Assembly (NCBI GenBank): GCA_963733375.1
Contig: CAVTDB010000003.1
Span: forward strand, 128,001-192,000
Source of the DNA: Nitrospirota bacterium
GTDB taxonomy: Bacteria > Nitrospirota > JACRHJ01
Direction of reading: 5' to 3'
DNA: 64,000 bases
Part shown: positions 4,375-32,023 of the stretch, piece after piece
How the letters are laid out: each line of letters begins with the position of its first letter
Numbering within the stretch: the first letter of the stretch is position 1
Notes under the pieces: model-generated
Databases searched by the model: none
Seen by the model: the letters and a program-made list of their open reading frames with translations, nothing else
Told to the model about the DNA's origin: nothing
Position numbers and translations under genes: made by a program

Positions 4375-4413
4375 ACGATTATTATCCCCGGCTGTCCGTT
4401 TGAACCGGTATAC

Positions 4414-4574
4414 TGTTGATCGGCGTGCAATAATGACCCACTTAGCGGGTAATCGGCGTCCAATATTGACCCTCCCTCTGAAGTCATAACACGCGGTTAT
4501 TAATATGATAAATTAAATTAACCCTGGGTCAAACAGGATGCCGATGGTGGGTCAAAATTGCACGCCGATCAACA
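4414..4574 (+). mobile_element. IS21-type MITE, copy A
   Basis: TGTTGATCGGCGTGCAATAATGACCC...GGGTCAAAATTGCACGCCGATCAACA; two ~21-bp repeats per end, AT-rich core, no transposase. Confidence 0.88.
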
Positions 4575-4663
4575 TCCTGAGGCGTTTCCGTGGCGTTTTC
4601 CGAAGCCGACTTGTCGTGATTTCAAAGAGTTAGGAATCTCACCCCCCCTGTCAATGTACAGTC

Positions 4664-5140
4664 TTGCTTTTGGGGGAATGCCCTGAATGGTTAAGGGAGA
4701 TAGTCACCTTCGCAATCTATACCGGGATGAGACGTAACGAGATACTATCCCTTAGATGGCCCCAGGTGGACTTAGAGCGGCAGGCGATAACGCTCCTTAT
4801 AACCAAGAATAAGGAAAAGCGCACCGTGCCAATAAATGAAAAGGTTCTGACCCTTTTGAGGGAAAAGGTCTCATCGCGGAAAAATTCTGGTTACGTTTTC
4901 CCTTCGGAGGCGGGCACGATGATAGAGGGGCACAATTTGAGCCGTGCATATAGGCTGGCAAGGGAAAAGGCAGGGCTTAACGATGTCCGTTTCCACGATC
5001 TCCGCCATACTGCGGGCAGCCGGATGGTTCAAGCTGGTGTTGACCTCTATTCAGTGAGTCTGATCCTGGGCCATAAAACCCTAGCTGTTACAAAGCGGTA
5101 TGCTCACCACAATGTTGAGAGTCTGCGCCGTGGCTGTTGA
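4664..5140 (+). pseudogene. Tyrosine integrase, C-terminal catalytic fragment
   Basis: YTGMRRNEIL, RFHDLRHT, LGHK...RYAH; the N-terminus is missing and replaced by a transposon-end-like sequence ending TGTACA at 4660. Confidence 0.85.
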
Positions 5141-5455
5141 TTAACATCCGGTTTGAGATTTATTGTCAGGAGGGGTGAGATTAACCCTATCGAAGTTTTG
5201 ATTAAACAAAGCGCGAAATGCGTCCTTTGTGGTGCTCCTTATGGGAAATGCGATTGCTGGCAGCCATGCGATTATAAGCCGCCGTGCGGCCACGTGCATG
5301 AAAAGGGGCAACTTGCGGGAATCCCATTCATGAGATGAAAAAGGCAAAAGAGAGGCGGCGGTGGGCTGCTTGGTAAAATCGGATTTCACGTGGTGAAATT
5401 TTTCGAGAGAGCGAGTTATCTCACCGTTTTGCGAAAGTTATCTCGCGCCGCTACA
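5135..5455. mobile_element. Possible miniature or remnant Mu-type element with TGT...ACA ends and GAGAT repeats
   Basis: Left TGTTGATT...TGAGATT...GGGGTGAGATT; right GTTATCTC x2 ...CCGCTACA, whose reverse complement TGTAGCG matches the end at 59179. Confidence 0.45.
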
Positions 5456-5479
5456 CAGAAACGAGGGAGTTGACTCTAA

Positions 5480-5513
5480 CTTTACAACTGGTACAATAAA
5501 CGGGGGCAGATCA
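5480..5513. mobile_element. IS3-family terminal inverted-repeat remnant (similar ones at ~12003, ~13675, ~14080)
   Basis: ctttacaactggtacaataaacgggggcagatca is the reverse complement match of tgacctgcccccgtttattgtaccagct at 13675 and ggcctgccccgttattgtaccaactgtaaag at 12003. Confidence 0.55.
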
Positions 5514-5587
5514 ATTGAAATCCCCCCTTATCCAGGTTTGGACAATCCGGCCCCGGTATTCCAGGAATTTAAGTCAAATTATGGATT

Positions 5588-7446: not shown

Positions 7447-7607
7447 TGTTGATCGGCGTCCAAAATTGACCCACCATCGGCATACTGCTTGACCCAGGGG
7501 CAAGTTAGTTTATCATTTTAATAACAGCAAGTTATGACCTCAGAGGGTGGGTCAATATTGGACGCCGATTACCCGGAAAGTGGGTCATTATTGCATGCCG
7601 ATCAACA
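7447..7607 (-). mobile_element. IS21-type MITE, copy B (inverted)
   Basis: TGTTGATCGGCGTCCAAAATTGACCC...GGGTCATTATTGCATGCCGATCAACA. Confidence 0.88.
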
Positions 7608-10138: not shown

Positions 10139-10855
10139 AGTTCTTACATTCCTTTCTTTAAGTGTTTCATTTACCCCCAGACATTATCATTTTCAATCTT
10201 GTAATCATCGTACTGCCATTTTTTCTGTTCGAATATTTTCCGTAGAACAGATATACGATCTTCAATAATCTTCAATCAATTCTTATTTTTACTATCAACG
10301 CCTAAGGTTTTAAGTCTGTTAAACTCAGCTCAATACTAAGCATGTTGGCGAATAATTTTTCTTTGTGAGGAGAAAAGATACTTTTTGTAAAACCAATATC
10401 TAGGTTCTTCCTTTTCGTGGAGTTATATATATTATTTCTTATATGAGGATTACTTTACATTGTTAGGAGAAAAATGCCAATATAGGTATTTTACCAGGGA
10501 TTAGATTAGAATGAAGGGCCGGTTTGCTCTCCTGAAATTGTCAATTTTCCTAGTGTATCTAATTGGTTATATTCTATAGACGCAGCGGTTGGAACTTAAA
10601 ATATTTGTTGTCCTTGTCCTTATATGTCTTTAAGGAAAAAGAGAATAAACGGCGGCTGGGAATTCTGATGATAGATTAGCTTAAAAAAGATTTAGCTTGT
10701 GCTGTGATCAGCCGGATGGAATTGAACCCGCTGATAGGTTTTTTTATCTTTTAAAATACATCGCTTAGAAAATTGCAAATGGATTTGTGAACCTTTTGTG
10801 AACCAAGTGCCAATTCATACCCTTCAACTTCTTTTTGATGGTAAAACGCCGCTAG

Positions 10856-11017
10856 TGTGGATCGGCATGCAATAATGACCCACTTTGTGGGGTCATCGGC
10901 GTCCAATATTGACCCACCTTCTGAGGTCATAACATTCTGTTATTGATAATGATAATTTAAATTACCCCTGGGTCAAACGGATGCCGATGGTGGGTCAAAA
11001 TTGCACGCCTATCAACA
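10856..11017 (+). mobile_element. IS21-type MITE, copy C
   Basis: TGTGGATCGGCATGCAATAATGACCC...GGGTCAAAATTGCACGCCTATCAACA. Confidence 0.88.
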
Positions 11018-11164
11018 CTGAATGGGGACGCGCCGGTCAGGAAGACCGAATTGCTTATTTGGGAGAGAACAAATGGCTGCATTGCGACATCGACTACGCG
11101 ACAGTAACTCCGACAATGGAGGCGGCGGTGGCTACATCGGCACTAAATTCCTAATACGCGTAAG

Positions 11165-11839
11165 TTAGGTACTGACTTCCAGTTGGTGTTTCCATAGCCG
11201 CAACCATGCTTCCCGATCATGATATCCAATTATTTTTGAAGGATCAAGCACAACATGTCCTAAATTGATTAACGAAGATACCGCAAGGAGGTTGTCTGCC
11301 ATACAATAATCAAGCATGTCGGGATAGTTCGCAAATTCGGCAACAGAGCAGATAAATGCATATTCTAGATCATTAACAAGTTCGGGTTGATTTACTAAGT
11401 CTAAACCGATCAGATCCCCTAATTCTTTATATCCATTGTGGCCGGTCGTTTGAATAAATCCACGGCCTCTAAAGTTATAACCATCATCAGTGCCTGGTCG
11501 ATTTCCCATGCGCCCACCATAAGCGAGATCGCCAATCATTTGTTGGTTAGCCGGATGTTCCTGGGTGCGCCCATAAAGCAAAGCCTGCGCGGTGTTAAAA
11601 TGAGTTGGCCATTGTTTAAGCAAAGCTTGAGGGGTGTAATTTAGCGACTCAGTCATTTCCAAGGCTGTATTGCTTTCATGGCTTATTTGGGCCATCAGAT
11701 GAGCAAGTTCCAAAATACTATCGATTTTGTATTTTATAAAAGCTTCCGCCTGAATAGCCAAAATTCCGGTAATTTGACTTTGAACTTTTTCGCTATCTGG
11801 CCACACGGCATTAAAATCATCTTGAGTAAGATATCTCAT
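11165..11839 (-). CDS. Glycoside hydrolase family 19 (chitinase/endolysin-like)
   Basis: MAQISHES, ESLNY, YGGRMGN...DGYNFRGRGFIQTTGHNGY. Confidence 0.88.
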   Translation of the reverse strand: MRYLTQDDFNAVWPDSEKVQSQITGILAIQAEAFIKYKIDSILELAHLMAQISHESNTALEMTESLNYTPQALLKQWPTHFNTAQALLYGRTQEHPANQQMIGDLAYGGRMGNRPGTDDGYNFRGRGFIQTTGHNGYKELGDLIGLDLVNQPELVNDLEYAFICSVAEFANYPDMLDYCMADNLLAVSSLINLGHVVLDPSKIIGYHDREAWLRLWKHQLEVST

Positions 11840-12077
11840 TGAAGGTTACCTGGTTATTTATAAATTTATGGCCTCAGCATTACGCCCTGTGTTTAAACGG
11901 AAGAGGCATTAAGCCCCTTCCGCCATTTTTTTCTGACGGCTGCCATCGCCACCACGTAAAGCACGATAGCTACCTGTCTGCCCATTTTAGCCCTCCTTCG
12001 CCGGCCTGCCCCGTTATTGTACCAACTGTAAAGTTAAAGAAATCTGTCCCGAGGGCATAGTACATAATCAGCGCCCC

Positions 12078-12362
12078 TTACTTTTTGCCATCCACCATCT
12101 CTTTCAATTCTTTGCCTGGTTTAAAGAAAGGCACTAATTTCGCTGGAACACTGACAGCCTCCCCAGTTTTGGGGTTCCTGCCGTCGCGTTCTTTTCTGGA
12201 GCGTAATTTGAAACTGCCGAATCCTCGGATTTCAACGTTGTCATTGGAAGCAAGGGCGCCTTTAATGCTGTCAAAAAAGGCATTGACGATGATCTCGGCC
12301 TCTCTCTTGTTAATTCCATCTACTTTATTAGCCAGTTTATCTGTGAGTTCTGCTTTTGTCAT
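12078..12362 (-). CDS. ihfB: Integration host factor beta / HU family DNA-binding protein
   Basis: MTKAEL, VEIRGFGSF, GRNPKTGEAVSVPAK, FFKPGKELKE. Confidence 0.85.
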   Translation of the reverse strand: MTKAELTDKLANKVDGINKREAEIIVNAFFDSIKGALASNDNVEIRGFGSFKLRSRKERDGRNPKTGEAVSVPAKLVPFFKPGKELKEMVDGKK

Positions 12363-12404
12363 AGGATTCCTTGATAAATAAAACGCTCTTGTTTTTTTCA
12401 GCTG

Positions 12405-12551
12405 TTAGATTATGTTAGCCCTTCGGCGATTCTGTGCGATCCTTTTATCCACGATGCTACCGCAGTTTAAGCACTTCCAGCCGTAGAAAGTCATCGAATT
12501 GTTATCGAACCTCTGATAGACCATCAACCCACCGCATTTCGGACATTTCAT
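12405..12551 (-). CDS. 48-aa zinc-ribbon protein
   Basis: Manual translation MKCPKCGGLM...WKCLNCGSIVD; GGGGGA RBS. Confidence 0.7.
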   Translation of the reverse strand: MKCPKCGGLMVYQRFDNNSMTFYGWKCLNCGSIVDKRIAQNRRRANII

Positions 12552-13135
12552 AATTGTTCCCCCTTCCAGGTATTGTAAGTTTTATGGGGATATCCGGAAA
12601 GCCGCCTTTATTTTGAGCCAGTCTTCTTAAGCAACCAAGCCATGTTCTGCCCCAGCACCTCCATCGTCCTGATCCCCTCTTCGTCCTTTTCCACTTCTCC
12701 TTTTTCGCGGCCTATCTTCGAGAGTCTGCTTACTAAAAGAATTTGGAACTCAAGTTGGTTTCCTCGCGCTTCATTGTTGATCGACGTGCAATTTTGACCC
12801 ACCTTCTAAGGTCACAACTGGTTGTTATTAATATTATAATTGAAATTAAGCCTGGGTCAAACAGGATGCCTATGGTGGATCAAAATTGCACGCCGATCAA
12901 CATAGAAAGTAATCGAATTGTTATCGAACCTCTGATAGACCATCAACCCACCGCATTTCGGACATTTCATAATTGTTCCCCCTTCCAGGTATTGTAAGTT
13001 TTATGGGGATATCCGGAAAGCCGCCTTTATTTTGAGCCAGTCTTCTTAAGCAACCAAGCCATGTTCTGCCCCAGCACCTCCATCGTCCTGATCCCCTCTT
13101 CGTCCTTTTCCACTTCTCCCTTTTCGCGGCCTATC
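12484..13135. repeat. ~230-bp direct duplication (12484-12716 and 12903-13135) around MITE D
   Basis: Near-identical sequence from tagaaagt(c/a)atcgaattg to gcggcctatc; the second copy starts immediately after the MITE end. Confidence 0.9.
12775..12902 (+). mobile_element. IS21-type MITE, copy D (128 bp, one internal repeat lost)
   Basis: TGTTGATCGACGTGCAATTTTGACCC...CAAAATTGCACGCCGATCAACA. Confidence 0.85.
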
Positions 13136-13605
13136 CCTATGTTCCAGTAAATAGACCCAGGGACTATCATTTGAGTTACCATAAAAAAATGATTTATAGA
13201 GTCGAATACGTTTATTGCCCCGCCTCGGCGAACCGCGACGACGGCAGCACCTACTTTCCTCTTGAACATATCGTCATTGGCCATGGAGGTCATTCCGGCC
13301 CTCTCAATGAGAGCCTTTAGCCCCGCGCTGATATCGGCAAAATAGGTGGGTGAGCCCAAGATTATTCCGTCAGCATCTAGCATCTTGTCTATACACTCAT
13401 TGACTACATCATCCTTAACGGCACAATGACGGTCTTTGTTCTTAAAGCATTTGTAGCAGGCAATGCAACCCTGGATTTTCTTGCCCGAGAGCTGAACCAT
13501 CGTTGTTTTTATGCCTTCCTTCTTCAGTTCATCAAAAACCCGGTTAATCAGTATCGCTGTATTACCATTTTTGCGGGCACTCCCATTGAAGGCAATGACT
13601 TTCAT
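13027..13605 (-). CDS. Flavodoxin family / iron-sulfur flavoprotein (NADPH-dependent FMN reductase family)
   Basis: MKVIAFNGSARKNGNT, CIACYKC...C, GSPTYF, RRGG. Confidence 0.9.
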   Translation of the reverse strand: MKVIAFNGSARKNGNTAILINRVFDELKKEGIKTTMVQLSGKKIQGCIACYKCFKNKDRHCAVKDDVVNECIDKMLDADGIILGSPTYFADISAGLKALIERAGMTSMANDDMFKRKVGAAVVAVRRGGAINVFDSINHFFMVTQMIVPGSIYWNIGIGREKGEVEKDEEGIRTMEVLGQNMAWLLKKTGSK

Positions 13606-13846
13606 TTTGTTCCTCCTACACAGAACCATTGGGGTGAATAAAACACAAGTGCTCTATTGATGGTTGGCGCGGATGACCTGCCCCCGTTTATTGTACCAGC
13701 TATAAAGATTTTACTTACCATCTTGAGGTGCTCCCCTTTTTAGGTCCATCCGGGATGAGGAAAATGCTATAAATTTGCTCATGAAGGAACAAGTTTTTCC
13801 AGTGTTGGATTTTGCTCCTGTAGAGCAAACATCTCCGGCGTTAAGT

Positions 13847-14009
13847 TCTTGATCGGCATGCAATAATGACCCACTTTGGGGGGTCATCGGCGTCCAATAT
13901 TGACCCCACCTTCTGAGGTCATAACATTCTGTTATTCATAAGATAATTTAAATTACCCCTGGCTCAAGCAGAATGCCGATGGTGGGTCAAAATTGCACGC
14001 CGATCAACA
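13847..14009 (+). mobile_element. IS21-type MITE, copy E
   Basis: TCTTGATCGGCATGCAATAATGACCC...GGGTCAAAATTGCACGCCGATCAACA. Confidence 0.88.
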
Positions 14010-14097
14010 GTATAACCCCGCTTCGCCATACAACACCCCCTTATTAATAATCATGTCCAGATTCTAACATTAAATCTGGACCGGTTTAAAGGGGGCA

Positions 14098-14122
14098 GGT
14101 CATTATTGCATGCCGATCAACA
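14098..14122 (-). mobile_element. Solo MITE terminus abutting an IS3-type end
   Basis: ggtcattattgcatgccgatcaaca preceded by ccggtttaaagggggcagg. Confidence 0.75.
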
Positions 14123-14284
14123 CTTAGCGCAAAAACGGCGCTTTCGAAGTTTAACTTTGGAGATAAAAACCCGATAAAATCCACTATGGGCACTTTTCTC
14201 TTAAATACTTCTTGCCCGATCGCTCTTAATTGGTCCATGTGTTTCGATTAACGACACAAATGCTGTTCAGAATAGTTAATTCAT

Positions 14285-14722
14285 TTATTTCTTATCGCCG
14301 GTATCCTTTGATTTTACTTCATGCTCCCGCGTATTTATCCATTTTGCATGTTCCTGCGACACAATAGCTTCAACATGCTCTGCAAACATAGCACTTGGCT
14401 CTTTTGCTGTAGCGTAATGACCGGCTTTCGCGAGATAGAGAAACTTTTCATGTTTCAGTGATTCACATGTTGTTCGATAAGAAATCCAGTTTTGGCTATA
14501 TTGGTTCAACTGTTGCAAACTTTCAAGGATAACTATGACAACGCCAAATCCACCGGTTATATAAGGTGATGCCCCAATACCTGCCAAAAAGGGAATCACG
14601 GCCGCCGCTATTATTTGTATGACCTTTAGCCGTTTATACAACCGTTGATTTTTTATACTTCGCTGATCATACCAATTGATTTGGTCTTCCAATCGTTCAA
14701 ACGTAGAGTTTTGTTCGGACAC
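14285..14722 (-). CDS. SLATT (DUF4231) two-TM protein
   Basis: RLEDQINWYD, two hydrophobic helices, NWISYRTTCESLKHEKFLYL; AGGAGG RBS. Confidence 0.88.
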   Translation of the reverse strand: MSEQNSTFERLEDQINWYDQRSIKNQRLYKRLKVIQIIAAAVIPFLAGIGASPYITGGFGVVIVILESLQQLNQYSQNWISYRTTCESLKHEKFLYLAKAGHYATAKEPSAMFAEHVEAIVSQEHAKWINTREHEVKSKDTGDKK

Positions 14723-14734
14723 AGTCGATCCTCC

Positions 14735-15037: not shown

Positions 15038-15100
15038 GAATAGCTTCCTAATTTAGCGGTGAATTCGGGTGGAACTTTAAACCAGCCCCCCAAATTATTT

Positions 15101-16991: not shown

Positions 16992-17159
16992 AGTTTAATA
17001 AATTCTATTTTTCTCCCAACTCCTCGCATGATGGGCTTGAAATCCAATCTTTACTCCCAAGCGCGTCTCCTTAGCATCAATTCATTTATCTCATTTAGCA
17101 GTATTCCATGAGAACTTAGACTGGCTTTTATTAATGCGGCCTAGCGGGCTTAAGTAAAC

Positions 17160-20100: not shown

Positions 20101-21968
20101 TGAATGAGGCTGATAAACCGGTTTAGCAATTGTGCCAGTATTCGGCAATCGATGGAGTATTCGTTTGGCGACTGTGAAATTGCAGCTGCCGCCAGAAAAG
20201 GATCGCGCTCAACAATATCCAGAAGCATGGAAGAAGGATTTCCCAAGTTTAGTAGGGTGTATATAACTTCATCATAGGGTCTTAAAATGCGTCTTCCGTT
20301 TTCAATTAGCGGTTCTCGAATTAAGGCACCTAATTGTTCCGAATGCGTAAGGTAATACTCTGCTGCGAAATATTCAAGTAATAGAGGATGGGCGAACTTC
20401 AGAAAACGACCCTCTTTCACTAATACGATAAAATCAGCACCACGGCCAAGTCTGACAAGAGCATTACCGTCAATCCCATTTGGTAAATATCTTTCTATGT
20501 ATTTCGTTTCAACCATCTGAGACGTTCTATTATGGAGCATGGCAACTGCTAATGCTCCGAAACCATCAATAGCAGTAGATAACTGATGGTACCTCATTTC
20601 TTTACGTAATTGTTTTTGTTCCCGGTCGTATAATTCAGAAGCAAAAGATCGGATAAGTTCTCCCCGAGTTGGCGGTATTCGTTCATCTTTATTATAAATA
20701 AGACACATCACTTGCAATAAAAAAGGATTCCGGGCCATATGGACCAGGTCGCGAGGCGCAGCATCAAGTCGGCACTCCCATCCAATTTCATGAAGAAGCC
20801 CCTTGTTTCGATCGCCTAGTCGCTCTAGCACGAACTTTTCGACAGCTTTGTCATTCATAGGGAGGACATTTACTATCGGCAAACCTAGATGTCCAGTTTC
20901 CTCCCGTGAAGTTATGACTACAGAGGTTCCTGGGTGCCTGGAAAGCCATACTGCGATTGATTCAATCTGGATAGCGGCATATTCTGAATCCATTTGACTT
21001 AATCCATCAAGCAATAGCAACAACGATTCAGGAAACACAGGAGTGCCTATTTGATTAAGGGTCTCATTATGGATCAAGGTGGCAAGATCTATGACGTTAT
21101 CTGGCCATGCTTGAAGTTCAATAAAAAGCGGTATTGATGTTGTGGTACCAGCCAAATATCGATGAGCGGTGTCATTTAAAATGTGCTTTAGGACTGCTGT
21201 TTTCCCGCATCCTGGCCTGCCTACGATGACAAATTGTCGGTGGAATGCCACCGCGTTCTCTACTTGTAACAGTGAGATGGCCTTTGGAATTTGTGGCGCA
21301 ATCTGTTCCATGGTATTAACGTATGACGGCCACAAAAAGTCCGAACAGTCATCGCGGTCCTTAATCTCTGTTATGTGAGTACCTCCACTGAGATGAACAT
21401 AGTACTTTTCGAACTTATTGTTCGTGTACGTAGATTTAATTTTTTCTAAATATTTTTGAACAGGGGATTCCGGTTGCGATGGTTTTTTGACGTTTTGCCT
21501 ATCATTCTTCCACTTGAGAATGCTATCAGATATTAAGCCAAGGAGCTCATCTTTATTATTAAATGTACGAGCTCGAAGATCAAGAAGCCTCATCCTAAAA
21601 TCGTCGATCAGTACTCCACGTTCATTATCTCCAGTAGAATGATCGGTAAGACTCCGGGGCCATAAAGGATCGTCGAGCACAAACATATGCCGTTCAATTC
21701 CTTTATTCCCGGCCTCTTCATATTCCAATTCTGTGATAGATTTGGTTTCACCTTTAAAAATATGTCCGTAACGATAAGCGATAATACCTATAAATAGGTC
21801 GCACTCGCGTATATCCCCCAGGCATTTCTCAAGATGCCTCGTTTCCTCAGCACAATAATATTCCATCGCAACGTCATCGAGATTTAATCTTTTTAACTTA
21901 TCCCGCACGGCGCTACGGATATTTTTGAGGTCATCGAACGTTGCGGAAACATAAACCTTTTCAGGCAC
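17160..21968 (-). CDS. NLR-like protein: DUF4062 (TIR-like) + NACHT/STAND NTPase + HEAT + Trp-rich repeats
   Basis: KVYVSATFDDL...RYG...SITELEY (DUF4062); Walker A GRPGCGKT, Walker B LLLLDGL, NPFLL, FAHPLLLEYFAA; ~22 C-terminal 35-aa repeats. Confidence 0.88.
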   Translation of the reverse strand: MPEKVYVSATFDDLKNIRSAVRDKLKRLNLDDVAMEYYCAEETRHLEKCLGDIRECDLFIGIIAYRYGHIFKGETKSITELEYEEAGNKGIERHMFVLDDPLWPRSLTDHSTGDNERGVLIDDFRMRLLDLRARTFNNKDELLGLISDSILKWKNDRQNVKKPSQPESPVQKYLEKIKSTYTNNKFEKYYVHLSGGTHITEIKDRDDCSDFLWPSYVNTMEQIAPQIPKAISLLQVENAVAFHRQFVIVGRPGCGKTAVLKHILNDTAHRYLAGTTTSIPLFIELQAWPDNVIDLATLIHNETLNQIGTPVFPESLLLLLDGLSQMDSEYAAIQIESIAVWLSRHPGTSVVITSREETGHLGLPIVNVLPMNDKAVEKFVLERLGDRNKGLLHEIGWECRLDAAPRDLVHMARNPFLLQVMCLIYNKDERIPPTRGELIRSFASELYDREQKQLRKEMRYHQLSTAIDGFGALAVAMLHNRTSQMVETKYIERYLPNGIDGNALVRLGRGADFIVLVKEGRFLKFAHPLLLEYFAAEYYLTHSEQLGALIREPLIENGRRILRPYDEVIYTLLNLGNPSSMLLDIVERDPFLAAAAISQSPNEYSIDCRILAQLLNRFISLIQGGSQNCPAALSGMVQLGNMIVSQLLLLQKSNLHWMRRIALTALSQIPGRDALEGVINSLLDSNRWIRRDAQNALQSLDKESRPLMIAFIERLSKMEPGLRKQLSRALIECWRGIDDELVELVSINADIPINELFRTVEPTYCMSEDDGIDEQTSEELGKWGLTWRQSWNGNPGEQGLETSGRRWLKGGPREHPAWGLVWTALWAWKPGDSDLEAIGRRWLAEQPVTNGSWTYLWVALWVQHPGNSELEQMGRNWINNVPAGHQAWTLIWRYLWQVDPKDPDLERLGIQWLQQNVLQFEHFWGVIWLSLWEVNVGDCVLAEQGRRWLEIAKPDHIGWGYIWPKLWEADPGNSVLQTMAREWLGHVKIVQVNFNFIWGPLFKSNPADIGLKDLGFKLLNEITAKNDSWGYIWKALAESSDADEELISRGQSWLKIAALENKSWAAVWITLWNKKRGDSVLLEQAINWIENAPASQAGWHTIWMQLRKFCKNDGRIDRIGLNWLSVAPPFHGGWSYVWMELHTASPGDNGLIIIGRTWLDRVPILHRGWSQIWQVIYATSPFDEQLKQKGFVWLKRARLEDKHWPYVWRTLWNRTPGDQNLENEARSWLASSITQRPGWGYVWTVLFTYFPRDRQLFQLGLEWLDNAASCSYKVASGDMQWIQLWKRLSEGDCWDTDLLATTERYLRFYMIFDNNWLDVWSRLAGTGKMPDDIMEAGRKRGFAYLAESSPTEEEALINRIETAPIEENDNWTFLWRQAWDADIERPRLACFAINAIEKAGWIKQLPFIWKDIFDEIGPDEGLMRIGKVWVTGVDSSSPGWGLVWNAMVRARKSDSELLKLGRRWMQHGFFTRSSWPKIWLALWDLDVENHSKLVRHAKEWIYSNLKEDDAVLPVWRAVWAVDSNDENLLRWGINFLALNSKYHEWSEIVLDLWTAQNSRPTLRRMVLSWIKENRQHPKKDTLKRLINVDKAESQAQNENLGI

Positions 21969-22064
21969 TTTGAAAAGCTCCTTTCAGGACCTTACAAGTT
22001 ATAGATTGGAGAAGACGTTCGAGTGCTCCTACTGCCTTCTCTTTTGGGTTCCATGATCGCCTTG

Positions 22065-22226
22065 TGTTGGCCGGCGTGCAATTTTGACCCACCATCGGGC
22101 ATCCTGTTTGACCCAGGCTTAATTTAAATTATAATATTAATAACGACCAGTTGTGACCTTAGAAGGTGGGGCAATGTTGGACGCCGATTACCTTCAAAGT
22201 GGGTCATTATTGCATGCCGATCAACA
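22065..22226 (-). mobile_element. IS21-type MITE, copy F (inverted)
   Basis: TGTTGGCCGGCGTGCAATTTTGACCC...GGGTCATTATTGCATGCCGATCAACA. Confidence 0.88.
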
Positions 22227-22289
22227 AGCCTATGAGCGTAATAGCGAATTGGCCGTGTGCCATTTTTTTAAAGCCGCTGGCAACTATTA

Positions 22290-23873
22290 TTAAACTTGCG
22301 CACCTGCATACCTCAAAATTGCCAGAATTTCTGATTTAACTTTTATTGGTATTTCTGCAGCTTGCGAGATTTCTACATATTTGAAAGTTGTAACATCGAA
22401 TGGTACTTTGTCGTCGGCGTTTACAGGTTCAAAAAGTAAAATAAGGCGATTCTGTTCATGATGCTTTAGGGCGTACCCTATCTCAACATATACATTGGGC
22501 CGGTGACCTGTAAGGTCGCATATGATTATATCCGATGAGGCAATCGCCTCGTACATTTTTTTGTGAATAGGAAAAGTCCCGCCTTCCTCAGTTCCCATAT
22601 CCTCCAAATCGAGTTTTATACGATTCTCTCTCTCAATAGCAGCAAGTGTTTCTTTGAGTTGCTCAAGCCTTCTTTCTGCTCTATTATAAGCTCCATTCGG
22701 CGCATCAACAGGAGGATACCATCGTGCTAGGAAGACTTTCTTCGGTATTTTAAGTTGTGCGGCCTTGAATGTTTCAAGAAGCTGCTGAGCGGGCGATACA
22801 GGGCTGAGGAGGTTCGTTATTCCTTGCGAGCCGAGCCAGTTTCCTATGCGATTAAGATAATCGACCGACCACCTTATTTTAGTTTCATGGTCTCCACCGC
22901 TTGCCTCTCGCCAGACTCGTGCCGCTAGCTCTAAAAAAGAATACGTTTTACAGAGTGATGGATGTTCCGCCGTGAGGCGAGTGAGTATATCGGAAAGTCC
23001 TGCAAATAGATCCTCAGAAAATATCGTCATCTTTTCTCGTGACTCAGTGATACTCTCATCCAGCTTTATTAGATTGCTGGCAGCTTCCGACAAAGCTGTT
23101 AACGGACGTTCTCCAAACCGTTCTCGGGCAGGTTGAGGTAAATGTTGCAGACGCTCAGACAGTAGTCTGGTTAAATGTAATTCGGGGCTATATGCAAACT
23201 CTCTGTCAGGGGTCATGGAGTGAGTCGGGTCTTGACCAAGTAGAAGTCTCAAGCCATGTTCTGATTCAAGCGGTAACGCTTTACTGTTGATAGTATGGAA
23301 GATCAGGGACTCAGCAAAATCATCTGCATCGTTATTAGGCGGCTCAAGTAATACTAAGCAAAACGGCGCAAGGTATTTGTTTGGTAATGACATGTCTTCT
23401 TGTAGGTCTTCAGCCTTTGCAAGTCGGTGATTGCCGTCAATTCTTCTAAATAATTTTTCAGCCTTGACTTGATCCAGTTGGCTGCGCCTAACCCAAACAC
23501 GTAGTATTCTAAGATTCCTGCTTGCGTATCGACGATAGATTCCTATAGGACCTTCATCGACAGTTTTTACACCAACAGTTTCATCTTCAATCGTAATAGG
23601 TTCCACATGGCAGCGCACTGAGAGTATAACTTCTGGAATGAAACGACTATCGCTTTTCTCAAGGTACTTTCTTATATCATCTGCGTGCTTCGGATCTAGC
23701 TCTCTCTGATGTCCGGTGACGCGTTGGGGCTGGCCTCCATCTGTCATTAAGTAAGGAACGGATATAGCTGCCAAGTCTCTTAAATCGGCAAAGCCACGTA
23801 TGATGCGGAATATGCCTAACACACCTTCGGCAAAGTAGCCTTCGAATGATATGTATTGTGTTGCCAACGTCAC
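22290..23873 (-). CDS. DGQHR/ParB-like domain fused to a nucleoside 2-deoxyribosyltransferase/TIR-like domain
   Basis: HQRELD, IDGNHRL, IFHTINSKALPL; C-terminal AIASSDIIICDLTGHRPNVYVEIGYA...VPFD. Start overlaps the stop of the S gene. Confidence 0.75.
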   Translation of the reverse strand: MTLATQYISFEGYFAEGVLGIFRIIRGFADLRDLAAISVPYLMTDGGQPQRVTGHQRELDPKHADDIRKYLEKSDSRFIPEVILSVRCHVEPITIEDETVGVKTVDEGPIGIYRRYASRNLRILRVWVRRSQLDQVKAEKLFRRIDGNHRLAKAEDLQEDMSLPNKYLAPFCLVLLEPPNNDADDFAESLIFHTINSKALPLESEHGLRLLLGQDPTHSMTPDREFAYSPELHLTRLLSERLQHLPQPARERFGERPLTALSEAASNLIKLDESITESREKMTIFSEDLFAGLSDILTRLTAEHPSLCKTYSFLELAARVWREASGGDHETKIRWSVDYLNRIGNWLGSQGITNLLSPVSPAQQLLETFKAAQLKIPKKVFLARWYPPVDAPNGAYNRAERRLEQLKETLAAIERENRIKLDLEDMGTEEGGTFPIHKKMYEAIASSDIIICDLTGHRPNVYVEIGYALKHHEQNRLILLFEPVNADDKVPFDVTTFKYVEISQAAEIPIKVKSEILAILRYAGAQV

Positions 23874-25240
23874 GTCTCCTTAACAGGTAACTTTCCAAGT
23901 ATCATTGTCTCTATTTCCTTCTCGATATTTCGCGCCAACAGTTTAGCTGCGTCTTGCTCACGGGCAATCTCTTTTCTGCCCTCGTCAACGCGGCGCATAA
24001 TCTTTCGTTGCTCTTCGACATCCTTTGGCAGTGGTATGCTCAAACTTCGGATTTCTTCGGTGTTGATGTTCGCCTGTCCGATAATTTGTCTGCTCATAGC
24101 ATCTATCTGTTGACGACCAACGGTGGAGTTTAAAACGAATGCAATAAAATCTGGGTCGGCCTTATTAACGTTGGCACGTAGTCGAATCAAGTAAGATGCA
24201 AATACATAATCCCCTACTTCGTGAAACACCGCACATTTTCCAACAAGCTCTTTGCTGTTTGTTCTATTTATTAAGATATCGCCTTCTCTTAAAAGCAAGT
24301 TCACGGTCTCACGTTCGGATAGTTTAATATGCTTCAAGTCTTTTAGATTCAGGGTTCCGCTTACAATGTTGTTCATGCGTATAACTGGCGTACCCTCCCC
24401 GTTGATGTTCGCCTTATCGCTCGTGCCGTATTGAACCATGTCGAGGATAGAGCCAAGCGACACAACGGGGAATCGTCCCTTGGAGATATCGCAGCCTGTT
24501 TGCACTTGCTGGTTAAAGTCAACACCCCAGCGCGGAAAGTCTTTCCACCATACCGATAGCGACTTGGGCAACTGCGCCTGCATTGGTGGCTTTAACCCAA
24601 GGTCTTTATAGAACCTGGCGTCAATGTCCGCTTTTATTTGCTCAACCCTTTTATTGGCGGCTTCTATTTTCCCCTTTGCTTTGTGCCAGTGGTCAACGAT
24701 GGCTTGCTGGACAGAAGGCGGGGGGTAGGGTACTTGAACGGATAATAGGCGCTCCTCGCTTATTTCGCCTTTGCCTATACCACCGGTTTCAATATTAAAT
24801 TGATTCGTGCAATATTGTGAACGCAAAGCCGCCCATAGGAATTCAGTATTAACTTTTGAGGTATCTGGTATTAGCGAACGAAAATGAATCGTGATACCTA
24901 AGTCTGGGCCATCGGGTACTATCCCTATAGCTCTTTTTCTTGCATTTATTTTTGAGACGACAATATCACCCGGAACTGCACGATATTGAACCATTTTTGT
25001 AGCTGTACGCTTACCGGAGAAAACCTTCCCTTCATCAAACGAAATACGATCTAAGAAATTCACTTTCTCGTGTTTTTCCTGTGGCACAATCTCGAAGCGA
25101 ATATTACATACTTGCCCTAACGGTATGGTCGGCCAATGGCACTTATTACTTAATGAGAGGCGAAGTGAGGCAACATCCCAATAAACAAAATTTTGAAATG
25201 TAACCGCAAAAGCTTTTGTATCTATGCTATCCGTTATCAT
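23870..25240 (-). CDS. hsdS: Restriction-modification specificity (S) subunit
   Basis: Two TRDs, each followed by PxPP..Q..IV / IPLP..EEQRKI; GDILINRTNS, FASYLIR, GQANIN. Confidence 0.9.
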   Translation of the reverse strand: MITDSIDTKAFAVTFQNFVYWDVASLRLSLSNKCHWPTIPLGQVCNIRFEIVPQEKHEKVNFLDRISFDEGKVFSGKRTATKMVQYRAVPGDIVVSKINARKRAIGIVPDGPDLGITIHFRSLIPDTSKVNTEFLWAALRSQYCTNQFNIETGGIGKGEISEERLLSVQVPYPPPSVQQAIVDHWHKAKGKIEAANKRVEQIKADIDARFYKDLGLKPPMQAQLPKSLSVWWKDFPRWGVDFNQQVQTGCDISKGRFPVVSLGSILDMVQYGTSDKANINGEGTPVIRMNNIVSGTLNLKDLKHIKLSERETVNLLLREGDILINRTNSKELVGKCAVFHEVGDYVFASYLIRLRANVNKADPDFIAFVLNSTVGRQQIDAMSRQIIGQANINTEEIRSLSIPLPKDVEEQRKIMRRVDEGRKEIAREQDAAKLLARNIEKEIETMILGKLPVKET

Positions 25241-27454
25241 TAGTCTGTCCCTAAAATCAAAAAGGACTCCGGGTTAGCAAGGAACTCACCGTAAAGCTCC
25301 AGACACGTTTTCTCAACGCCCGAAGGCATATTGTTGTTAGGATAAAGTTCGTTCTGGTCGGCTTCACCCGTAGCCGTAATGCCGACCTTCTCCGCGTCGT
25401 ACAGGAAAATCATGTACGGGAACCTCTCCTTCAGGAGCGCCCGGGCTTTGGCTATGATAAGGGCTTCCATCCTCTTCTCATATTCCTTAAGCTCCTTCTG
25501 AGACGCTTTGCGAGACTCGGTATCTCTGGCGTCCTTTGCCGCCTCAATCTCTTTATTTAAACGCCCCCGCTCAGCTTCCATTTCCTTACTGTACTTGCCG
25601 CGTATCTCTTCTTCCGCTACGGTTTTCTTGGACTCGAAATCGGCCTTTTCACTTTCGGTGAATTTCTGCATGAATAATAACGACGCCTTCACGCTGGCCC
25701 CGGATGAGAAGAACGTCTCCTGGGGTAGGCTGACGACGGCTCGGATATAGGCGCGATCCTCACAAAATTCTCGGACGTAAGCAAGAGAAGGGTTATTGAA
25801 GACGCCTTCGGGCAGGACTATCCCCATTCGTCCACCAGGCTTAAGGAGCGAAAGGCAACGCTCGATGAAAAGTATTTCCGTCTTTATATTGCTTGTCGTC
25901 GTCTTTGGCAGTTCGAAAAGCGCGGCTATAGGCTTACCCTTGACAGCCTGCACCCTCGCCTGGGCCTCTTCATAAAGCTCTCCGAACTCAGAGAAGTATC
26001 TATTTGCCATTTCATTTGGAACCTGTATGTCTTCTTCTCTTATAATGTCGGAAGGCTCGACACTTGCGCCAAAGGGCGGGTTGGTCAGTATGATGTCAAA
26101 ACGTCCTTCAAATATTCCGTTCACATTCAGGAAGCCGTCGTGATGATGCACGCCGCCATGCCCGTCGCCATGCATTATCATATTCATCTTGCTCGTCCTA
26201 GCCATTCGGTCGTTGGCGTCCGTGCCATATATGGCTTTATTCGCAAGCTTCCAAAGACGGGAACCAGTTAATGACGGGTCAATCGTCTTTTGTATCTCTT
26301 CGTATTTTTGCCGAAGCGCTTCCGCCTTCTTCTCGTCAGAGAGCTTCTTGTTCTCTAATTGGGCTTTGTACTCCTGGTAAGCTTTGTCCGCGTCTGCAAG
26401 GATCTTCTGCCGTACAACCTCAAAGAAGCGGATAAGGAAGCCGCCAGAACCGCTTGCCGGGTCACATATAACATCTCCTTCCTCTGGCTCCACCATATGA
26501 ACCATAAATTCAACTATGGTTCGAGGGGTAAAAAACTGGCCGATTTCGCCACGGAATGTGCGGCCCAGAAATTTCTCAAAGGCGATACCCTTAATGTCTT
26601 CGCTGGTTTCAGAAAGGTTGTAGCGTTCGAGCCTTCTAACTATTTCATGTCCGGTTGCGGGCTTCAGGTTGATGTGTTCATCCGCATCAAAGATTTTATC
26701 GTTCTTGAAGAATGCCTTAGTGTCTTGGAAAAGTCCGTCCAACGGGTTATCGCCGAACTGCTCATTAAGAACCACGGTGGTGAAGAGGTTCTTGCGCTTA
26801 CGCTTTGCGCGCAGTTCCCTTTCAACAAAGACCTTGACGAACAGTATCTTGGCTATTTCATCGAATGCTGCGGCGGGGTCTTTTTTCTCGCGGTTACGGA
26901 TTACGTTATGGCAGTCCTGGAGGAGCTTTGCAAACTCGTCCTCTTTGAAGATTTTCAATTTGGATAGGAGTTCGTCTATCTCCTTGTCGCTGGCGTCGGC
27001 ATGGGGGATGTTGTCGATCTCTTCCAGCGACTTCGGCATCTTGTCATGCAAGACGCGCCAATACTTGGTTTCCCTGTTGTTGTGGGTTACAAGAAAACGC
27101 GCGTTAGAATAGCGGGCATATGCGTCACCCTGCCGGTAATCCTTATCTGTTATGGTTACGTTATCGGATTTGCACTCCACTACAATCAGAGGACTCTCGT
27201 TTTCGGTTTTGTCCTGAGCGGTACGCCAGATGACAAAATCGGCCCGCGCGTGTGCCGATCCCCTACCTGTTACCTCCTCCTCTTCAGCAATTTGGTTCTA
27301 AGGAAAAACCATATTCTTCGATGAGCACGAGAAGGTATTCTTGACGTACACGTTCTTCCGGCGTCTCGACGAGCCATCTTTGCCGCTTATGGCTCCAAAT
27401 CTTGCCGCCCTTAGTTTGTATTTCCAAAAATGTCTTGGCTTGTTTTTTTTCCAT
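25240..27454 (-). CDS. Fused HsdR_N-type endonuclease + N6-adenine methyltransferase (Type IIB/BcgI-like; frameshift near 27295)
   Basis: TPEERVRQ, RADFVIW, VVECK nuclease motifs; GQFFTPR, DPASGSGGF, TNPPF methyltransferase motifs. Confidence 0.85.
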
Positions 27455-27553
27455 GGAGGTTCCCTGCCAACTCAATAATAAAGGATAGCAGTACAGACGG
27501 TCTTCCTTGTGAGTCAACCCTGCCTATAACCGCTATCCTGCTGAATACGCCTT

Positions 27554-30500
27554 TCAGTTGCCTGATAGATTTGATTTCCGCAGTTCCAAATATCTCAGGT
27601 CGGAATGTAAGGTTTCACTTTTGATTCCTTGTAGAGAAGTCAAGTCAATCTCGTTTAATTCTTTTAGATATTTCTTTTCTAGATCATTGTCGCCAAGTAT
27701 TCGCCAAAGAAATGAGCTATGTCGAAATATTCTTAATAATTGGACTAATTGATTTTCATGTTTCATTAACTTCCAAATAACATTATGACATCTATTAAAT
27801 AAATCTTGGAGCCACTGATAATATAGATGAGTGTATGCTAATGATAATAAATGTCTATCTTCAGAATTAATTTCATTAGTTCTTATTTCTTCTATTAAAA
27901 TCTCTGCTTTAGTGATGATAGCTATAATGTGATTATAATCGTCTTCACGTGTCTGAAGAATTTGCTCAAGAAATCTAAGCTTCTCTTCCGTATTATCTGA
28001 TTTTCTCATTAAATTCAGGAGGGTGTTATTGCTAAGAACAGTGAATCCTTTCTTGCGAGCCTTCTGCTCCAATTGCAACAATTCCTTTTTTGTATCTGCG
28101 CTGGTTTCTTTGCATTCCAATATTATTTCTTTCGCATGCATATAAGCGGCGGATTCTTTTTCTTTCAGTTCCAAAACTTGTTCCGCAAACGATATTGCAG
28201 AAGTTCGTTCGATATTTTTAAGTGCAAGTGCAATATTCAAATACGCTGAAGCTTTCATTTCCTTGTTTAATAATTTTTCGCTATGCCCAAGGACTGATTG
28301 AAGGACTTGCACCGCTTCTTTTCTTTTATGCGTCATTCGAAGAGATTTCCCGTATATAAGGGCTATATCAGTAAACTCTTTTTTTAAATTCTTACCTTCA
28401 ATTAAATGATATATTTCAGCTGAAGCTTTACAGGCATCTTTGAAGCGATCATGATCAAATAATTGACCGCAATAATAAATGGCTAAACTGGCAGCCTGTT
28501 TAGCCGCTAGCTCATCTTTTTTTTGAAGTGCCGCCCAAATTAGATGATAAGCTACCGCATGTTCATTACCAGGGCCAATTGGCATCGCAAACTTCATTCC
28601 TAATTGAGCCATTTTCGTAAGTTTGATTTTACCTTCTCGCCAGTTTGGACCAAAAAGCAAATCTGTTGCTGTATATGTAATATCTGAATATTCTTCTTCT
28701 GTAATTAATGAGCTTACATAATCACGAACCTGCCTTGGTATACGAAGCAATTTAAATGCCTCAGATAAGGTAGCAGAGCCTTCTCTAATATAAAGGTTTC
28801 TGGGCGGGCGATAGAAGAGGCACTATTTCTAATAGCGAAAGCTCGGATAATTCCATAACGTTCCCTGGAAAAAAAGGTTCGGTAGGATAAAAACGCTTAA
28901 TCGTAGCCAATGTTTCTCCATTTGAGAGAACAGTTAGCAGTTTCAAGAGACGATAGCTCCGACGAGAATATCTGTCATTCGATTGAGCGAGGGAAGATAC
29001 GGCTTGTACCAAGGCCTTCGGGACAGGTTCTGCGTCAATTCGCTGTTCTTGCCCCGTTTCAAGCTCTATATCGAGCAATTCGCTGAAGGATATAATTTTA
29101 AGTGATTTTATTATTCGATCCAGATGCATTGGTAAGCCGCCGGAGAGTCTGGAAAGTTGTTCGACACTCTCAGCGTCTTGAAGTTCCATATTAGCTTCAG
29201 GGTGAACAGCCATATAATTACGGACTTCCGGTAAATCCAGCGGTTTTAATTCTACAAAGTCCAAAATTTGTTTAGTGATTTGTCTTGAAACAAGAATAAT
29301 ATAAATGCCCGGACAATAATCTAGGATTGAACTTATGAGTTGTTCAATAACGTTTCCTTTGCCTTCTTCAAAGGTAGATTCTGATAGTTCTGGAGTTATA
29401 TTGTCTAATATTAGTATTGAACAGGGTATGGCCGTATTTATGGCAACAAATTCTTGTAAAGGCAATCGGAATTGATCATCAAAGGCAGATAATAGTTGCT
29501 CAGCAGTGGTTATATCTTCGCATTGGAGGTTATATATATCTAAATAGGAAGATTGACCTTTCAGCCGTTCGAAAACACATCCTATAAATGTTTCTTTACC
29601 TAGACCCCAATCTGAAATTAGCCAAGCATACCGATTTCTACGAAGTAAGGTCTCAAATTGCGACTGGTCTTCCAAGCGGATTGCTCTATGTTGAGGTCCA
29701 ATATTTACTTTCAGTCGTGGTATTCCTTGAAGCTTTGATTTTGCTTTTTCAACGTCAGGGGATTCTTCACTCAATAAAGTTTTAAAACTTTCATTTAATG
29801 CGATTTCTTTTTCTGAGAGCCTCATTTGTAGGAGCTTCTAAGTGTAAAGATAACGATTCAGTTTTTTGTATTTCAGCTTCTGGGGGTTTTTTCGGTTCAA
29901 ACGTCCATACGATTGAATCTGCTTCGTTGAGGTCAAATTGTTGATCTGGACCAATTCGAAGATGGCCCGCATATGTTTGTACTGATATTCTTGGCCAAAG
30001 CTGCAACCTTCCTTCTGTTTCTGTTTTGTTTATTTCTATCCGGCAAGCGGTATACCCATGTATACGTTTTACCCTTTCTCGATATGTTTTCAGTCCAAAT
30101 AAAGAAGGTCCTTGCAAATATCTTCGAATCTCTGCACCACCTTCACTTATGCTCGCGGTGAAAGGTTCATGCATGTGCCCATATAGATGGGCAAAAAACC
30201 TTCCTGGCGGAGAAATTTCTCCTTTAAGACGAGCTTGTGCATTGGGATGCAGCCACTCCGGGCCATGATGAGATATCAATAAAGTAATATCTTTTTCTTT
30301 GCACCAGCTGACCGGATCACCGGAACAGGCATTGTGAATCTGGTTTTCATGTATATCGAGTTGACCTTTGTAATCATCCTTAGTGAGCTGCAAAAAGGCT
30401 GTATTTATACCAATAATCCCAAAACTTGCCCCGCCTATTTCAAGAACGATGGAAAAGTCTCCGGGGAGTAAACCATATTTTATTTCTTTAGGGTGGGGAA

Positions 30501-30942
30501 GAGATAAAGTTTGCAGCCATATTGTGTAATTATAAAAGCATTCATTTATGGTTGCTCTATATTCATTTTTACTAGAGCCCCAAAATTGTTTTCGTAAATC
30601 GGCGTCCTCATGCCAGTGTCTGAAAGCTTTGACCGCAGCATTCTCAGTTGAAGGGCGCAATAAATCATGGTTTCCTGGTACAGTTATCAGCGGCGGCCAG
30701 CTGCCCAAACTTCGGAAATGGGCCCAAATCTTATCCAAGGTTTCTGATAGTTTTTCGAATTCTTCCTTTTTCCCAGAATATGTTAAGTCGCCAGAAAATA
30801 TTACAGCATTCCACGGACCAGTTTGATCATGTAATTTCGATAGGTTTTTAAAAAATTCTTCGCGGTAGGTTGGCCAAAGCCATTCTTGATTTTCAATTCC
30901 AAAGTGCAGATCGGAGAAATGTAGCCAGTTAAAAGTAGCCAT
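27554..30942 (-). CDS. Metallophosphoesterase + degenerate STAND-like NTPase + TPR-like protein (two frameshifts)
   Basis: LHFSDLH, SGDL, PGNHD, HLYGHMH; SDWGLGKET, LILDN, SGGLP; helical TPR-like C-terminus; three abutting ORFs. Confidence 0.72.
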
Positions 30943-31081
30943 TTGTTTTCCCTGAATAAATATATGAAGTCGGTATTAGTTCTTGGGCAAGAAAGAAGCC
31001 ATTTCCAATGAATTTTATTACGCCATATTATGTTTTTAAAGGCAAGTAAATAATCAGAATTCAACTGAGTTTATTAAGGAT

Positions 31082-31560
31082 TCAGGTATTAACGCTGCAT
31101 AATGCCTCCTGCATATCACAGGACAAGTTCCCCATTAGAGTAGCGATCTTATAAAGGCTTTCCCCTTTCATGGCAAGCTGACTCCCAAAAGTATGTCTAT
31201 AATCCGGACATATCCATTGATGCTTTGCCTTCTCATTTGCATTTGGAAGAGCTTGTGAAATGTCGTCAGCATCCCATTTTACCTTGCGGACTGGTAAAGT
31301 ACCAACCTTCATGAGTGGGGGCTGGCGTATATCTCTCAAGATATTTTCTTAAAGTCGTGCTTATAGGCACTACGCGGTTTGCCTTCGTCTTGGGCTGCCA
31401 AAATTTTCCATTGATATTCTTTGCCCTGATGCGCAACATTCCTGCTTTCAAGTCAACATCCTCAAGGGTAAGCCATACAGCTTCTTCTCGACGTATTCCT
31501 GCAAAAATATACATGGCGACAATCGTCTGAAGCTGTGGTTGGTCATTGAGGGCCTCAAGC
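31082..31560 (-). pseudogene. Tyrosine integrase C-terminal fragment cut by a MITE end
   Basis: FAGIRREE, PKTK, DYRHTFGS, LMGN; the reading frame begins at the MITE terminus at 31561. Confidence 0.8.
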
Positions 31561-31611
31561 TGTTGATCGGCGAGCAATTTTGACCCACCATCGGCATCTG
31601 CTTGACCAGGG
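31561..31611 (-). mobile_element. MITE half copy G
   Basis: TGTTGATCGGCGAGCAATTTTGACCCACCATCGGCATCTGCTTGACCAGGG. Confidence 0.8.
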
Positions 31612-31864
31612 GCCGGATGGCCACCGGATTCGCCTCAGGACCACGAATACGGTGGAGCGGCTCAACAAGGAAAAAGCGCCGGACAAGCGTAATCGAGATA
31701 TTCCCGTCCGTGCAGTCAGCCGAGCGGATCATCGGGCATTGCTTATCGACCAGGATGAAAAATGGCAGGTCGAAATAACCTACCTAAACATGGATGAACT
31801 CAAGGAGTGGGAAAGGAAGCAGTCAAGCGAACAGGTCGAGGAGTCGGAATTTGCAGAAGCTTGA
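31612..31864 (+). pseudogene. IS256-family transposase C-terminal fragment
   Basis: HRIRLRTTNTVERLNKE, IFPS in a shifted frame, DEKWQ...YLNMD. Confidence 0.75.
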
Positions 31865-32023
31865 CTGCCATCGGCATGCAATAATGACACACTTGGGATG
31901 ATAGGCGCCCAAAATTGACCCACCTTCTTGGGCCATAAATTGCTGTTATTAAAATGATAAATTAAATTACGACTGGGTCAAGCGGGATGCCGATGGTGGG
32001 TCAAGAATGCACGCCTATCAACA
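31865..32023 (+). mobile_element. IS21-type MITE, copy H (left tip eroded)
   Basis: ATCGGCATGCAATAATGAC...GGGTCAAGAATGCACGCCTATCAACA. Confidence 0.85.

Follow-up and report, generated by a model that had tools for sequence, protein, structure and literature searches.

The window considered here, a stretch of 64,000 nucleotides (nt), corresponds to G000:C3:128001-192000, that is, to part of contig C3 in the assembly of a Nitrospirota bacterium (G000; 2.39 Mb in 26 contigs, 81% complete, 5% contamination). The subject is a 161-nt repeat, treated here as a miniature inverted-repeat transposable element (MITE), and the joints that its tips form with the surrounding DNA in this genome and in two congeners, G001 and G002, the latter assembled in 8 contigs and 94% complete. 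A repeat finder and direct reading recovered nine copies or part-copies in the window, seven of them complete, one a solo left end and one a right half:

4414-4574, plus strand: complete MITE copy, 161 nt; a truncated Gly-rich gene, reduced to its last codons, meets the left tip, and a 3' fragment of an integrase gene meets the right one.
7447-7607, minus strand: complete copy, 161 nt, upstream of an RCC1-repeat gene; 89% identical to 4414-4574.
10856-11017, plus strand: complete copy, 162 nt.
12775-12902, plus strand: complete copy of a 128-nt sub-variant with one left repeat, both tips present and the TGTTG tip intact.
13847-14009, plus strand: complete copy, 163 nt, with TCTTG as its left tip.
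14097-14122, minus strand: solo left end, consisting of one repeat and the tip.
22065-22226, minus strand: complete copy between two defence-like gene blocks.
31561-31612, minus strand: right half (element positions 110-161), whose tip meets a second integrase fragment.
31865-32023, plus strand: complete copy, more diverged than all others and degenerate at its left tip, 40 nt from the orf121/TniB-like gene.

Read along the window, the orientations of the nine copies are + - + + + - - - +. The tips are TGTTG...CAACA, and each end carries two repeats, spaced by 33 nt on the left and adjacent on the right. The 21-nt end repeat, ATCGGCRTSCAAWWWTGACCC, has 22 matches in the window at up to 3 mismatches, all within 4419-32018, with 0.03 expected by chance, and this number was reached in none of 100 shuffles; the right 32 kb of the window holds no copies. 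The initial annotation had already reported nine diverged copies in both orientations, with TG...CA tips, two repeats per end and an empty right half, and this description stands, coordinates included, apart from the single left repeat of the 128-nt sub-variant. An interpretation of the copy at 12775-12902 as truncated was ruled out, as both tips are kept and G001 and G002 have this sub-variant too.

The mean identity of a copy to the other copies compared is 81-89%, and pairwise differences amount to 3-19% of positions. The closest relatives of most copies are found in other genomes; the copy at 22065-22226 has 96.9% identity to G001:C85:28870-29030, whose flanks are unrelated, and the 87 nt separating the copy at 13847-14009 from the solo end are found again beside a left end in G001:C65. 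The element is non-coding, small and multicopy, bounded by terminal inverted repeats and derived from an insertion sequence (IS), as is usual for MITEs; the definition given in one passage of PMC11602168 also includes a short flanking target duplication, which the element of the window lacks. Rfam detected no family in the window.

As for its distribution, the MITE gave 17 high-scoring segment pairs in a BLAST search of the assembly, of which 16 lie in C3:95,167-160,025 and one at C20:13,278-13,325, with none on the other 24 contigs; the copies are thus clustered and not dispersed, and fragments at C3:95167, 116261 and 117547 extend the cluster to about 33 kb upstream of the window. A decayed, internally deleted relic was also noted at C3:346740-346825, about 100 nt from the end of the contig. 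Among the 41 genomes searched, seven had a match at E ≤0.001: G000 itself, both congeners (20 and 11 matches, clustered), one member of another genus in the family (2 matches), and three genomes with single short matches (E 1e-5 to 1e-3) that are not trusted.

The presence of the same pattern in two other assemblies, one of them of 8 contigs, and in ten JGI contigs bears on whether the array could be an artefact, with repeats producing chimeric joins in a metagenome-assembled genome (MAG). G000 is a bin of 26 contigs, with the completeness and contamination given above, and no public run contains more than 17% of the words sampled from 10500-14500, both of which speak for such an origin; yet the copies differ too much from each other to be collapsible repeats, and to the left and right of the variable tract described below the contig of the window keeps synteny with G002. 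An artefact is therefore considered very improbable.

Regarding its family, a scan for the end repeat over one genome per species matched at least 120 DNA stretches, and among the matches listed many show two inverted end-repeat matches 2.4-2.9 kb apart. The full-length elements examined, L045 and L097, encode proteins with the Pfam IstB_IS21 and rve/Mu-transposase-C domains, and with the NCBIfam models L097 scored 305 bits for the IS21 transposase (NF033546, cut-off 160) and 278 bits for IstB (NF038214, cut-off 200). Nucleotides 1-63 of the MITE differ little from the left end of L097 and L144, the closest among the matches listed (about 88% identity by hand count), and the right end of L097 has two adjacent repeats, as in the MITE. 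Full-length elements of 2.4 kb in other genomes, with ends near-identical to those of the MITE, encode IstA and IstB; the one whose left end was aligned with the MITE is from a Geopsychrobacteraceae MAG. IS21 ends are described in the consulted part of PMC10122671 as L1/L2 and R1/R2 repeats. With the family of its ends established, the MITE is, judging from sequence, best regarded as a miniature non-autonomous derivative of the IS21 family; both the assignment to IS21-type ends and the existence of an element with such ends plus istAB, which the initial annotation had proposed to look for, were borne out in other genomes.

The resemblance to IS21/IS5376, which use IstA with the AAA+ helper IstB, covers the TGT...ACA tips and the two transposase-binding repeats per end, spaced on the left and adjacent on the right; unlike these elements, the MITE has only 161 nt and no gene, no helper was found in its genome, and none of the 23 complete copies inspected has a 4-8-bp duplication. 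The full-text literature (open-access papers only, without supplements) yielded neither a described IS21-derived MITE family nor arrays of this sort. An alternative assignment to Tn7/Tn5053/Mu-type ends, served by the adjoining MuA/TniA-like and TniB-like genes, was rejected, because the ends match IstA/IstB elements; no end repeat occurs inside 32024-35850, the region of that module, and its 665-aa transposase reaches 33 bits on the IS21 transposase model, whose cut-off is 160. The 665-aa protein belongs to a different element and not to the transposase family of the MITE.

The search for a helper transposase was negative in the genus. Neither istA nor istB lies in the window, in agreement with the initial annotation, or elsewhere in the assembly, where tblastn with IstA and IstB of L097 gave no match at E ≤1e-3, although with G000 81% complete this absence is not proven. 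In 18 loci of G000-G002 the same queries gave no meaningful match, the sole hit covering 15 residues at E 0.61, and an IstA protein search had no match in these three genomes or in 9 further genomes of the family, with a match in 2 of 9 more distant genomes. The Pfam IstB model matched only AAA+ proteins of a kind also matched in 13 of 14 control genomes, besides one weak IstB relic at G001:C65:37783-37995. The absence of istAB is meaningful at least for G002, because of the contiguity and completeness of that assembly.

The absence of target-site duplications, also claimed initially, extends well beyond the window: they are missing at all 7 complete copies of the window, at 9 of G001/G002 and at 7 of JGI metagenome contigs (0 of 23), with no match of at least 4 nt at the tips. 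The closest full-length IS among the matches listed (L170-L180, from G041, the Geopsychrobacteraceae MAG) gives a measure of comparison; it has been recently active, because its genome holds 11 complete copies of 98-100% identity, and 6-7-bp duplications are present at 4 of these 11. Copies without duplication are accordingly common even for this autonomous element, since only those 4 keep them. Among mixed full-length relatives, 5-8-bp duplications were found at 6 of the 18 with both tips recognised (28 listed; flanks read by eye). The IS21-type family thus does make duplications, and their total lack in the MITE is not expected from drift alone.

These figures weigh on the simplest explanation, namely that the copies are those of an ordinary MITE, inserted normally one by one into A+T-richer dispensable DNA, with duplications that have since decayed and flanks blurred by unrelated deletions. 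It would suit the G+C content of the inter-MITE segments (42-52%, against 53-57.5% for the contigs), the divergence among copies, the intergenic position of several of them, and the frequency of IS copies without duplications, Table 4 of PMC3189936 containing, for instance, 12 complete ISPsy17 copies without repeats. Against it, no copy among the 23 has even a 4-nt match at its tips, an outcome with p of about 4e-5 at the rate of the closest listed IS; moreover, the only recent event with a known empty site, that at 12775, is not a simple insertion (see below), and the flank pairs are collinear in neither G001 nor G002. This explanation is hence judged improbable.

Comparison of the flanks with those of relatives, as recommended in the initial annotation, revealed that the MITE tips coincide with joints specific to each genome. 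One neighbour sequence, 4575-5456 in the window, illustrates this point: it is joined to a MITE right tip at position 4575 in the window and at 5158 and 5366 in G002:C3, while in G001 it is joined at 5376 after 29 nt of other DNA (G001:C85) and at 5134 after 298 nt (G001:C123); in G002:C2 it is inverted. Nested joints starting from an element's tip are the classical sign of adjacent deletions and inversions made by a transposase. A rearrangement of another kind is found at the copy at 12775, the only one of 27 with a long flanking repeat, around which the sequence is organised as follows:

12484-12716: first copy of a 233-bp duplication, 99% identical to the second (2 differences).
12717-12774: 58 non-repeated nt between the duplication and the left tip of the MITE, unmatched in the rest of the assembly and in the loci compared.
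12903-13135: second copy of the duplication, which begins exactly at the right tip of the MITE and truncates a duplicate Zn-ribbon open reading frame (ORF).

The Zn-ribbon duplicate at 12903 had been recognised initially. The corresponding region, 12082-13674, occurs without the MITE and with the 233-bp stretch in single copy both in G001:C111 and in a 5.8-kb soil-metagenome contig (the alignment skips 419 nt); the event at 12775 is recent and not a simple insertion.

Other loci display the same association. In a metagenome contig of a relative, C20:59272-60176 is inverted at a MITE with respect to G000, and in two other metagenome contigs MITE pieces connect C26:34455 with the final 273 nt of a gene that in G000 lies 267 kb away. 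At the tRNA-Arg(CCT) locus (C26:242.5 kb), G000 has 55 nt from the stop codon of a core gene to the tRNA terminator and no island; in G002 this place is filled by a 25-kb island, with a MITE at the stop codon as one boundary and a MITE tip of 13 nt, at the terminator, as the other, and in G001 a MITE right half occupies the same terminator boundary. Integrase and transposase domains are absent from all 21 ORFs (≥80 aa) of the G002 island. The tRNA-Val tract of G000 and the tRNA-Arg island of G002 share a B12-radical-SAM segment (94.7% identity), joined in both to the same mutated MITE tip, although G002 retains only 15 nt of the MITE; a DUF1571 segment (97.5% identical) is to the right of a MITE in G002 and to the left of one in G001. 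MITE tips thus coincide with sites of difference between relatives, and segments move among the loci that MITEs mark.

The window belongs to a hypervariable tract whose conserved flanks match G002:C1:4687-8726 and 42950-47058; the tract is about 106 kb long in G000 and 34 kb in G002, where it has no MITE. The inter-MITE cargo is nearly all absent from G001 and G002. An intact tRNA-Val(CAC) gene lies at C3:200050-200124, and its 3' part, with about 80 nt downstream, is present in four copies within 81 kb, at C3 118.5, 125.3, 163.8 and 200.0 kb, of which that at 200.0 kb belongs to the intact gene; the four copies suggest tandem related islands, and in G001:C27 a GH94 gene block was observed between two tRNA-Val 3' copies. 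The remaining features of the window that bear on the array are the following:

3939-4413, minus strand: fn3 gene and the last codons of the Gly-rich gene, cut by the first MITE.
4575-5137 (ORF 4664-5137), plus strand: 3' fragment of a tyrosine recombinase, catalytic domain only (PF00589, 1.2e-36).
5129-5456: 81-codon ORF of no family, and a module of about 80 nt with two AGTTATCTC repeats.
14123-22064, minus strand: cargo block 1, with SLATT/DUF4231, HEAT and ThsB-like TIR proteins and a 1601-aa DUF4062-NACHT NTPase.
22227-31265, minus strand: cargo block 2, with a protein having a TIR-effector-like C-terminus, type I S and M subunits, a metallophosphoesterase and proteins of no assigned family.
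31266-31560, minus strand: second tyrosine-recombinase fragment, cut at the right tip of a MITE 26 codons further in than the first.
32064-35178, minus strand: orf121, a TniB-like AAA ATPase (32429-33178) and a 665-aa MuA/TniA-like DDE transposase (33181-35178), the right neighbours of the MITE array.
35722-35845, minus strand: tRNA-Val(CAC) 3' part and downstream sequence (the copy at C3 163.8 kb).

Most of the truncated genes reported next to the copies were recovered: the Gly-rich tail at 4413, for which 3939-4413 is a paralogue of 36149-36626 (73% over about 480 nt), where the Gly-rich gene is intact, and the integrase cut at 31560, with its counterpart at 4664-5137. The orphan ORF tail at 11018 could not be confirmed, as it is merely a 29-codon open frame. 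The two blocks described as defence-like deserve the name, given the ThsB-like TIR protein, the NACHT/DUF4062 NTPase, the SLATT protein and the type I M and S subunits.

Some observations on the surroundings can be added. The paralogous fn3/Gly-rich pairs, 3939-4413 and 36149-38542, suggest a relationship between the two neighbouring islands. The window contains no tRNA according to ARAGORN. The MuA/TniA-TniB module (window 32064-35682) has copies of about 91% identity at C20:17448-20551 and C1:97098-98576 and of 86-92% in G001/G002, all with the same 3.1-kb unit (32429-35520); the 121-aa ORF is present only in the copy of the window, and a sigma-54 activator follows the module on C20 and in G002:C3. 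In G001/G002, a 57-64-nt match to 4606-4674 follows the upstream region of the module; a comparison of 4606-4663 with 35625-35684 as a common transposon end was not significant by BLAST. The 87-codon frame at 31601-31861, considered as the tail of an IS256-type transposase, was dropped, since it has no Pfam match even at E ≤5 and no paralogue. A stretch of about 54 nt, 11934-11987, is found in contigs of all four metagenome runs compared and in every listed X5 piece except one; its flanks differ on both sides in X1, X3 and X5, it also adjoins a MITE in the JGI contig L168, and it may be another short dispersed repeat. Further out, window 3-2755 encodes two radical-SAM proteins, a SPASM-domain protein and small ORFs, and looks like a peptide-maturation cluster; 44982-49604 encodes a 1540-aa protein that combines an N-terminal C39 peptidase domain with RHS repeats, and a 139-aa ORF comes next; and a Mu-like prophage (head protease I, major head gpT, Mor, a 776-aa MuA-like transposase and a CI-like repressor) runs from 58095 to 64000 and on to about C3:199.9 kb, ending beside the intact tRNA-Val gene.

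The content of the tract also bears on the proposal of the initial annotation that abutted MITE ends, mobilised in trans, capture and concatenate foreign DNA. In this model, IstA/IstB supplied in trans would fuse foreign circular DNA at paired or abutted MITE ends, in a fusion of the cointegrase type, making the array an accretion platform. A cointegrase isoform of IS21 reportedly catalyses replicon fusion, according to the title of a study cited on it. The direct joining of the tips to DNA that differs between genomes agrees with this model, as do the 25-kb island at tRNA-Arg of G002, bounded by MITEs and devoid of integrase and transposase domains, and the lack of own duplications at the 23 copies, as expected of copies flanking a fused replicon. 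In the part of PMC10122671 consulted, the IS21 transposase acts on tandems, which the cointegrase isoform processes more efficiently. However, an abutted junction, with a right tip followed by a left tip within 12 nt, was found neither in the assembly nor in any locus examined; no matching 4-8-nt duplications bracket the cargo segments or adjacent MITE pairs (window; flanks of G001/G002 read by eye); the orientations are mixed, whereas replicon fusion yields direct repeats; and istAB was not found in three genomes of the genus. The tRNA-Val att repeats and the integrase remnants offer a simpler route of accretion: together with the Mu-like prophage and the Mu/Tn7-type modules, they explain the accretion of foreign DNA by serial integration at the tRNA without a role of the MITE. 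None of the outcomes that the initial annotation had named as refuting its proposal was observed. Capture by the MITE is nonetheless unlikely, if somewhat less so than a series of ordinary insertions, and of the cassette-like island initially described there remain the tips that mark variable joints and the segments that move among MITE loci, but not an integron-like capture.

The reading preferred here, to which roughly an even chance is given, is that fossil IS21 MITEs were used as break-and-join points in a hypervariable tract linked to a tRNA. The MITEs would be old deletion derivatives of an IS of the IS21 family, of which they would keep nothing but the pair of IstA-binding repeats at each end, and the tract would have been assembled mainly by other means, that is, by serial integration at the tRNA, the Mu-like prophage and the Mu/Tn7-type modules. 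The copies would not be footprints of simple insertion; instead, two kinds of joint would have formed at them, the first consisting of tip-precise adjacent deletions, inversions and one duplication, as might be made by IstA/IstB acting in trans, and the second of exchange between copies that serve as dispersed homology. Together, both kinds would remove, flip and relocate accessory segments among the MITE-marked hot spots of related genomes. The sequences themselves show the family of the ends, the clustering, the lack of target duplications, the alternative joints located exactly at MITE tips and the recurrence of one cargo beside MITEs at different loci; we infer the enzyme behind each joint, the order of the events and the present immobility of the MITE.

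Several points weigh against this reading. There is no transposase at hand, so that every enzymatic step is deduced, and the comparison covered three genomes and ten metagenome contigs only. Intramolecular events should leave half-duplications on different copies, and the search for such split duplications in 64 end pairs gave a single 6-nt match, against about 0.016 expected, which the copy at 31865 has in its left flank and that at 31561 in its right flank; the two flanks that share it do not make one gene, and a simple model does not fit. The 233-bp duplication with its 58 unique bases corresponds to no proposed step. As for the exchange between copies, 161-nt repeats with differences at 3-19% of positions lend themselves poorly to homologous recombination, and a PHI-like permutation test for recombination gave p = 0.79, although the distances of the left and right halves correlate poorly (r = 0.15); homologous exchange between copies is nevertheless plausible.

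Among known systems, the resistance regions interspersed with IS26, as presented in the consulted text of PMC4196232, contain segments separated by copies of a short element that have no duplications of their own, and these segments recur beside the element elsewhere. The array of IS26 translocatable units is the nearest known pattern to that of the window, with segments lying between duplication-less copies of one short element. In IS26 arrays the copies are directly oriented and encode the transposase for a conservative targeted reaction; the MITE, in contrast, has mixed orientations and is non-coding. No enzyme is known to perform a targeted conservative reaction of the IS26 type on IS21 ends. 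A bolder reading would have IS21-type ends perform, or be used for, duplication-free and tip-precise joining like that of IS26, with the coding-free 161-nt MITE as a genus-wide docking joint for the uptake, excision and movement of segments between tRNA-adjacent hot spots without an integrase; it is a speculation with a small chance of being correct.

Integrons share with the window palindromic elements of about 60-160 nt placed between self-contained gene blocks, but they differ from it in several respects: the window has no intact integrase and no attI, its two recombinase fragments reach 44.7 bits against an integron-integrase cut-off of 265, its blocks are 1-9 kb long, multi-gene and in both orientations, and the element has the ends of a DDE transposon and not those of attC. 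Tandem tRNA islands resemble the tract in the four tRNA-Val 3' copies within 81 kb, the integrase remnants, the low G+C and the threefold difference of tract length between species; unlike in such islands, the internal block boundaries within 4.4-32 kb are MITE tips and not att repeats.

In conclusion, if it is true that the MITE tips are preferred joints, they would offer, next to IS26 units and integrons, a second way of building arrays of exchangeable gene blocks, and one that would operate in uncultured bacteria of soil and peat and carry defence systems; in addition, a transposon relic could shape the flexible genome long after the loss of its transposase. If the copies are only passive scars, they would provide a clean case of a MITE family that has lost every insertion footprint, and short duplications would therefore be a poor criterion for calling MITEs.

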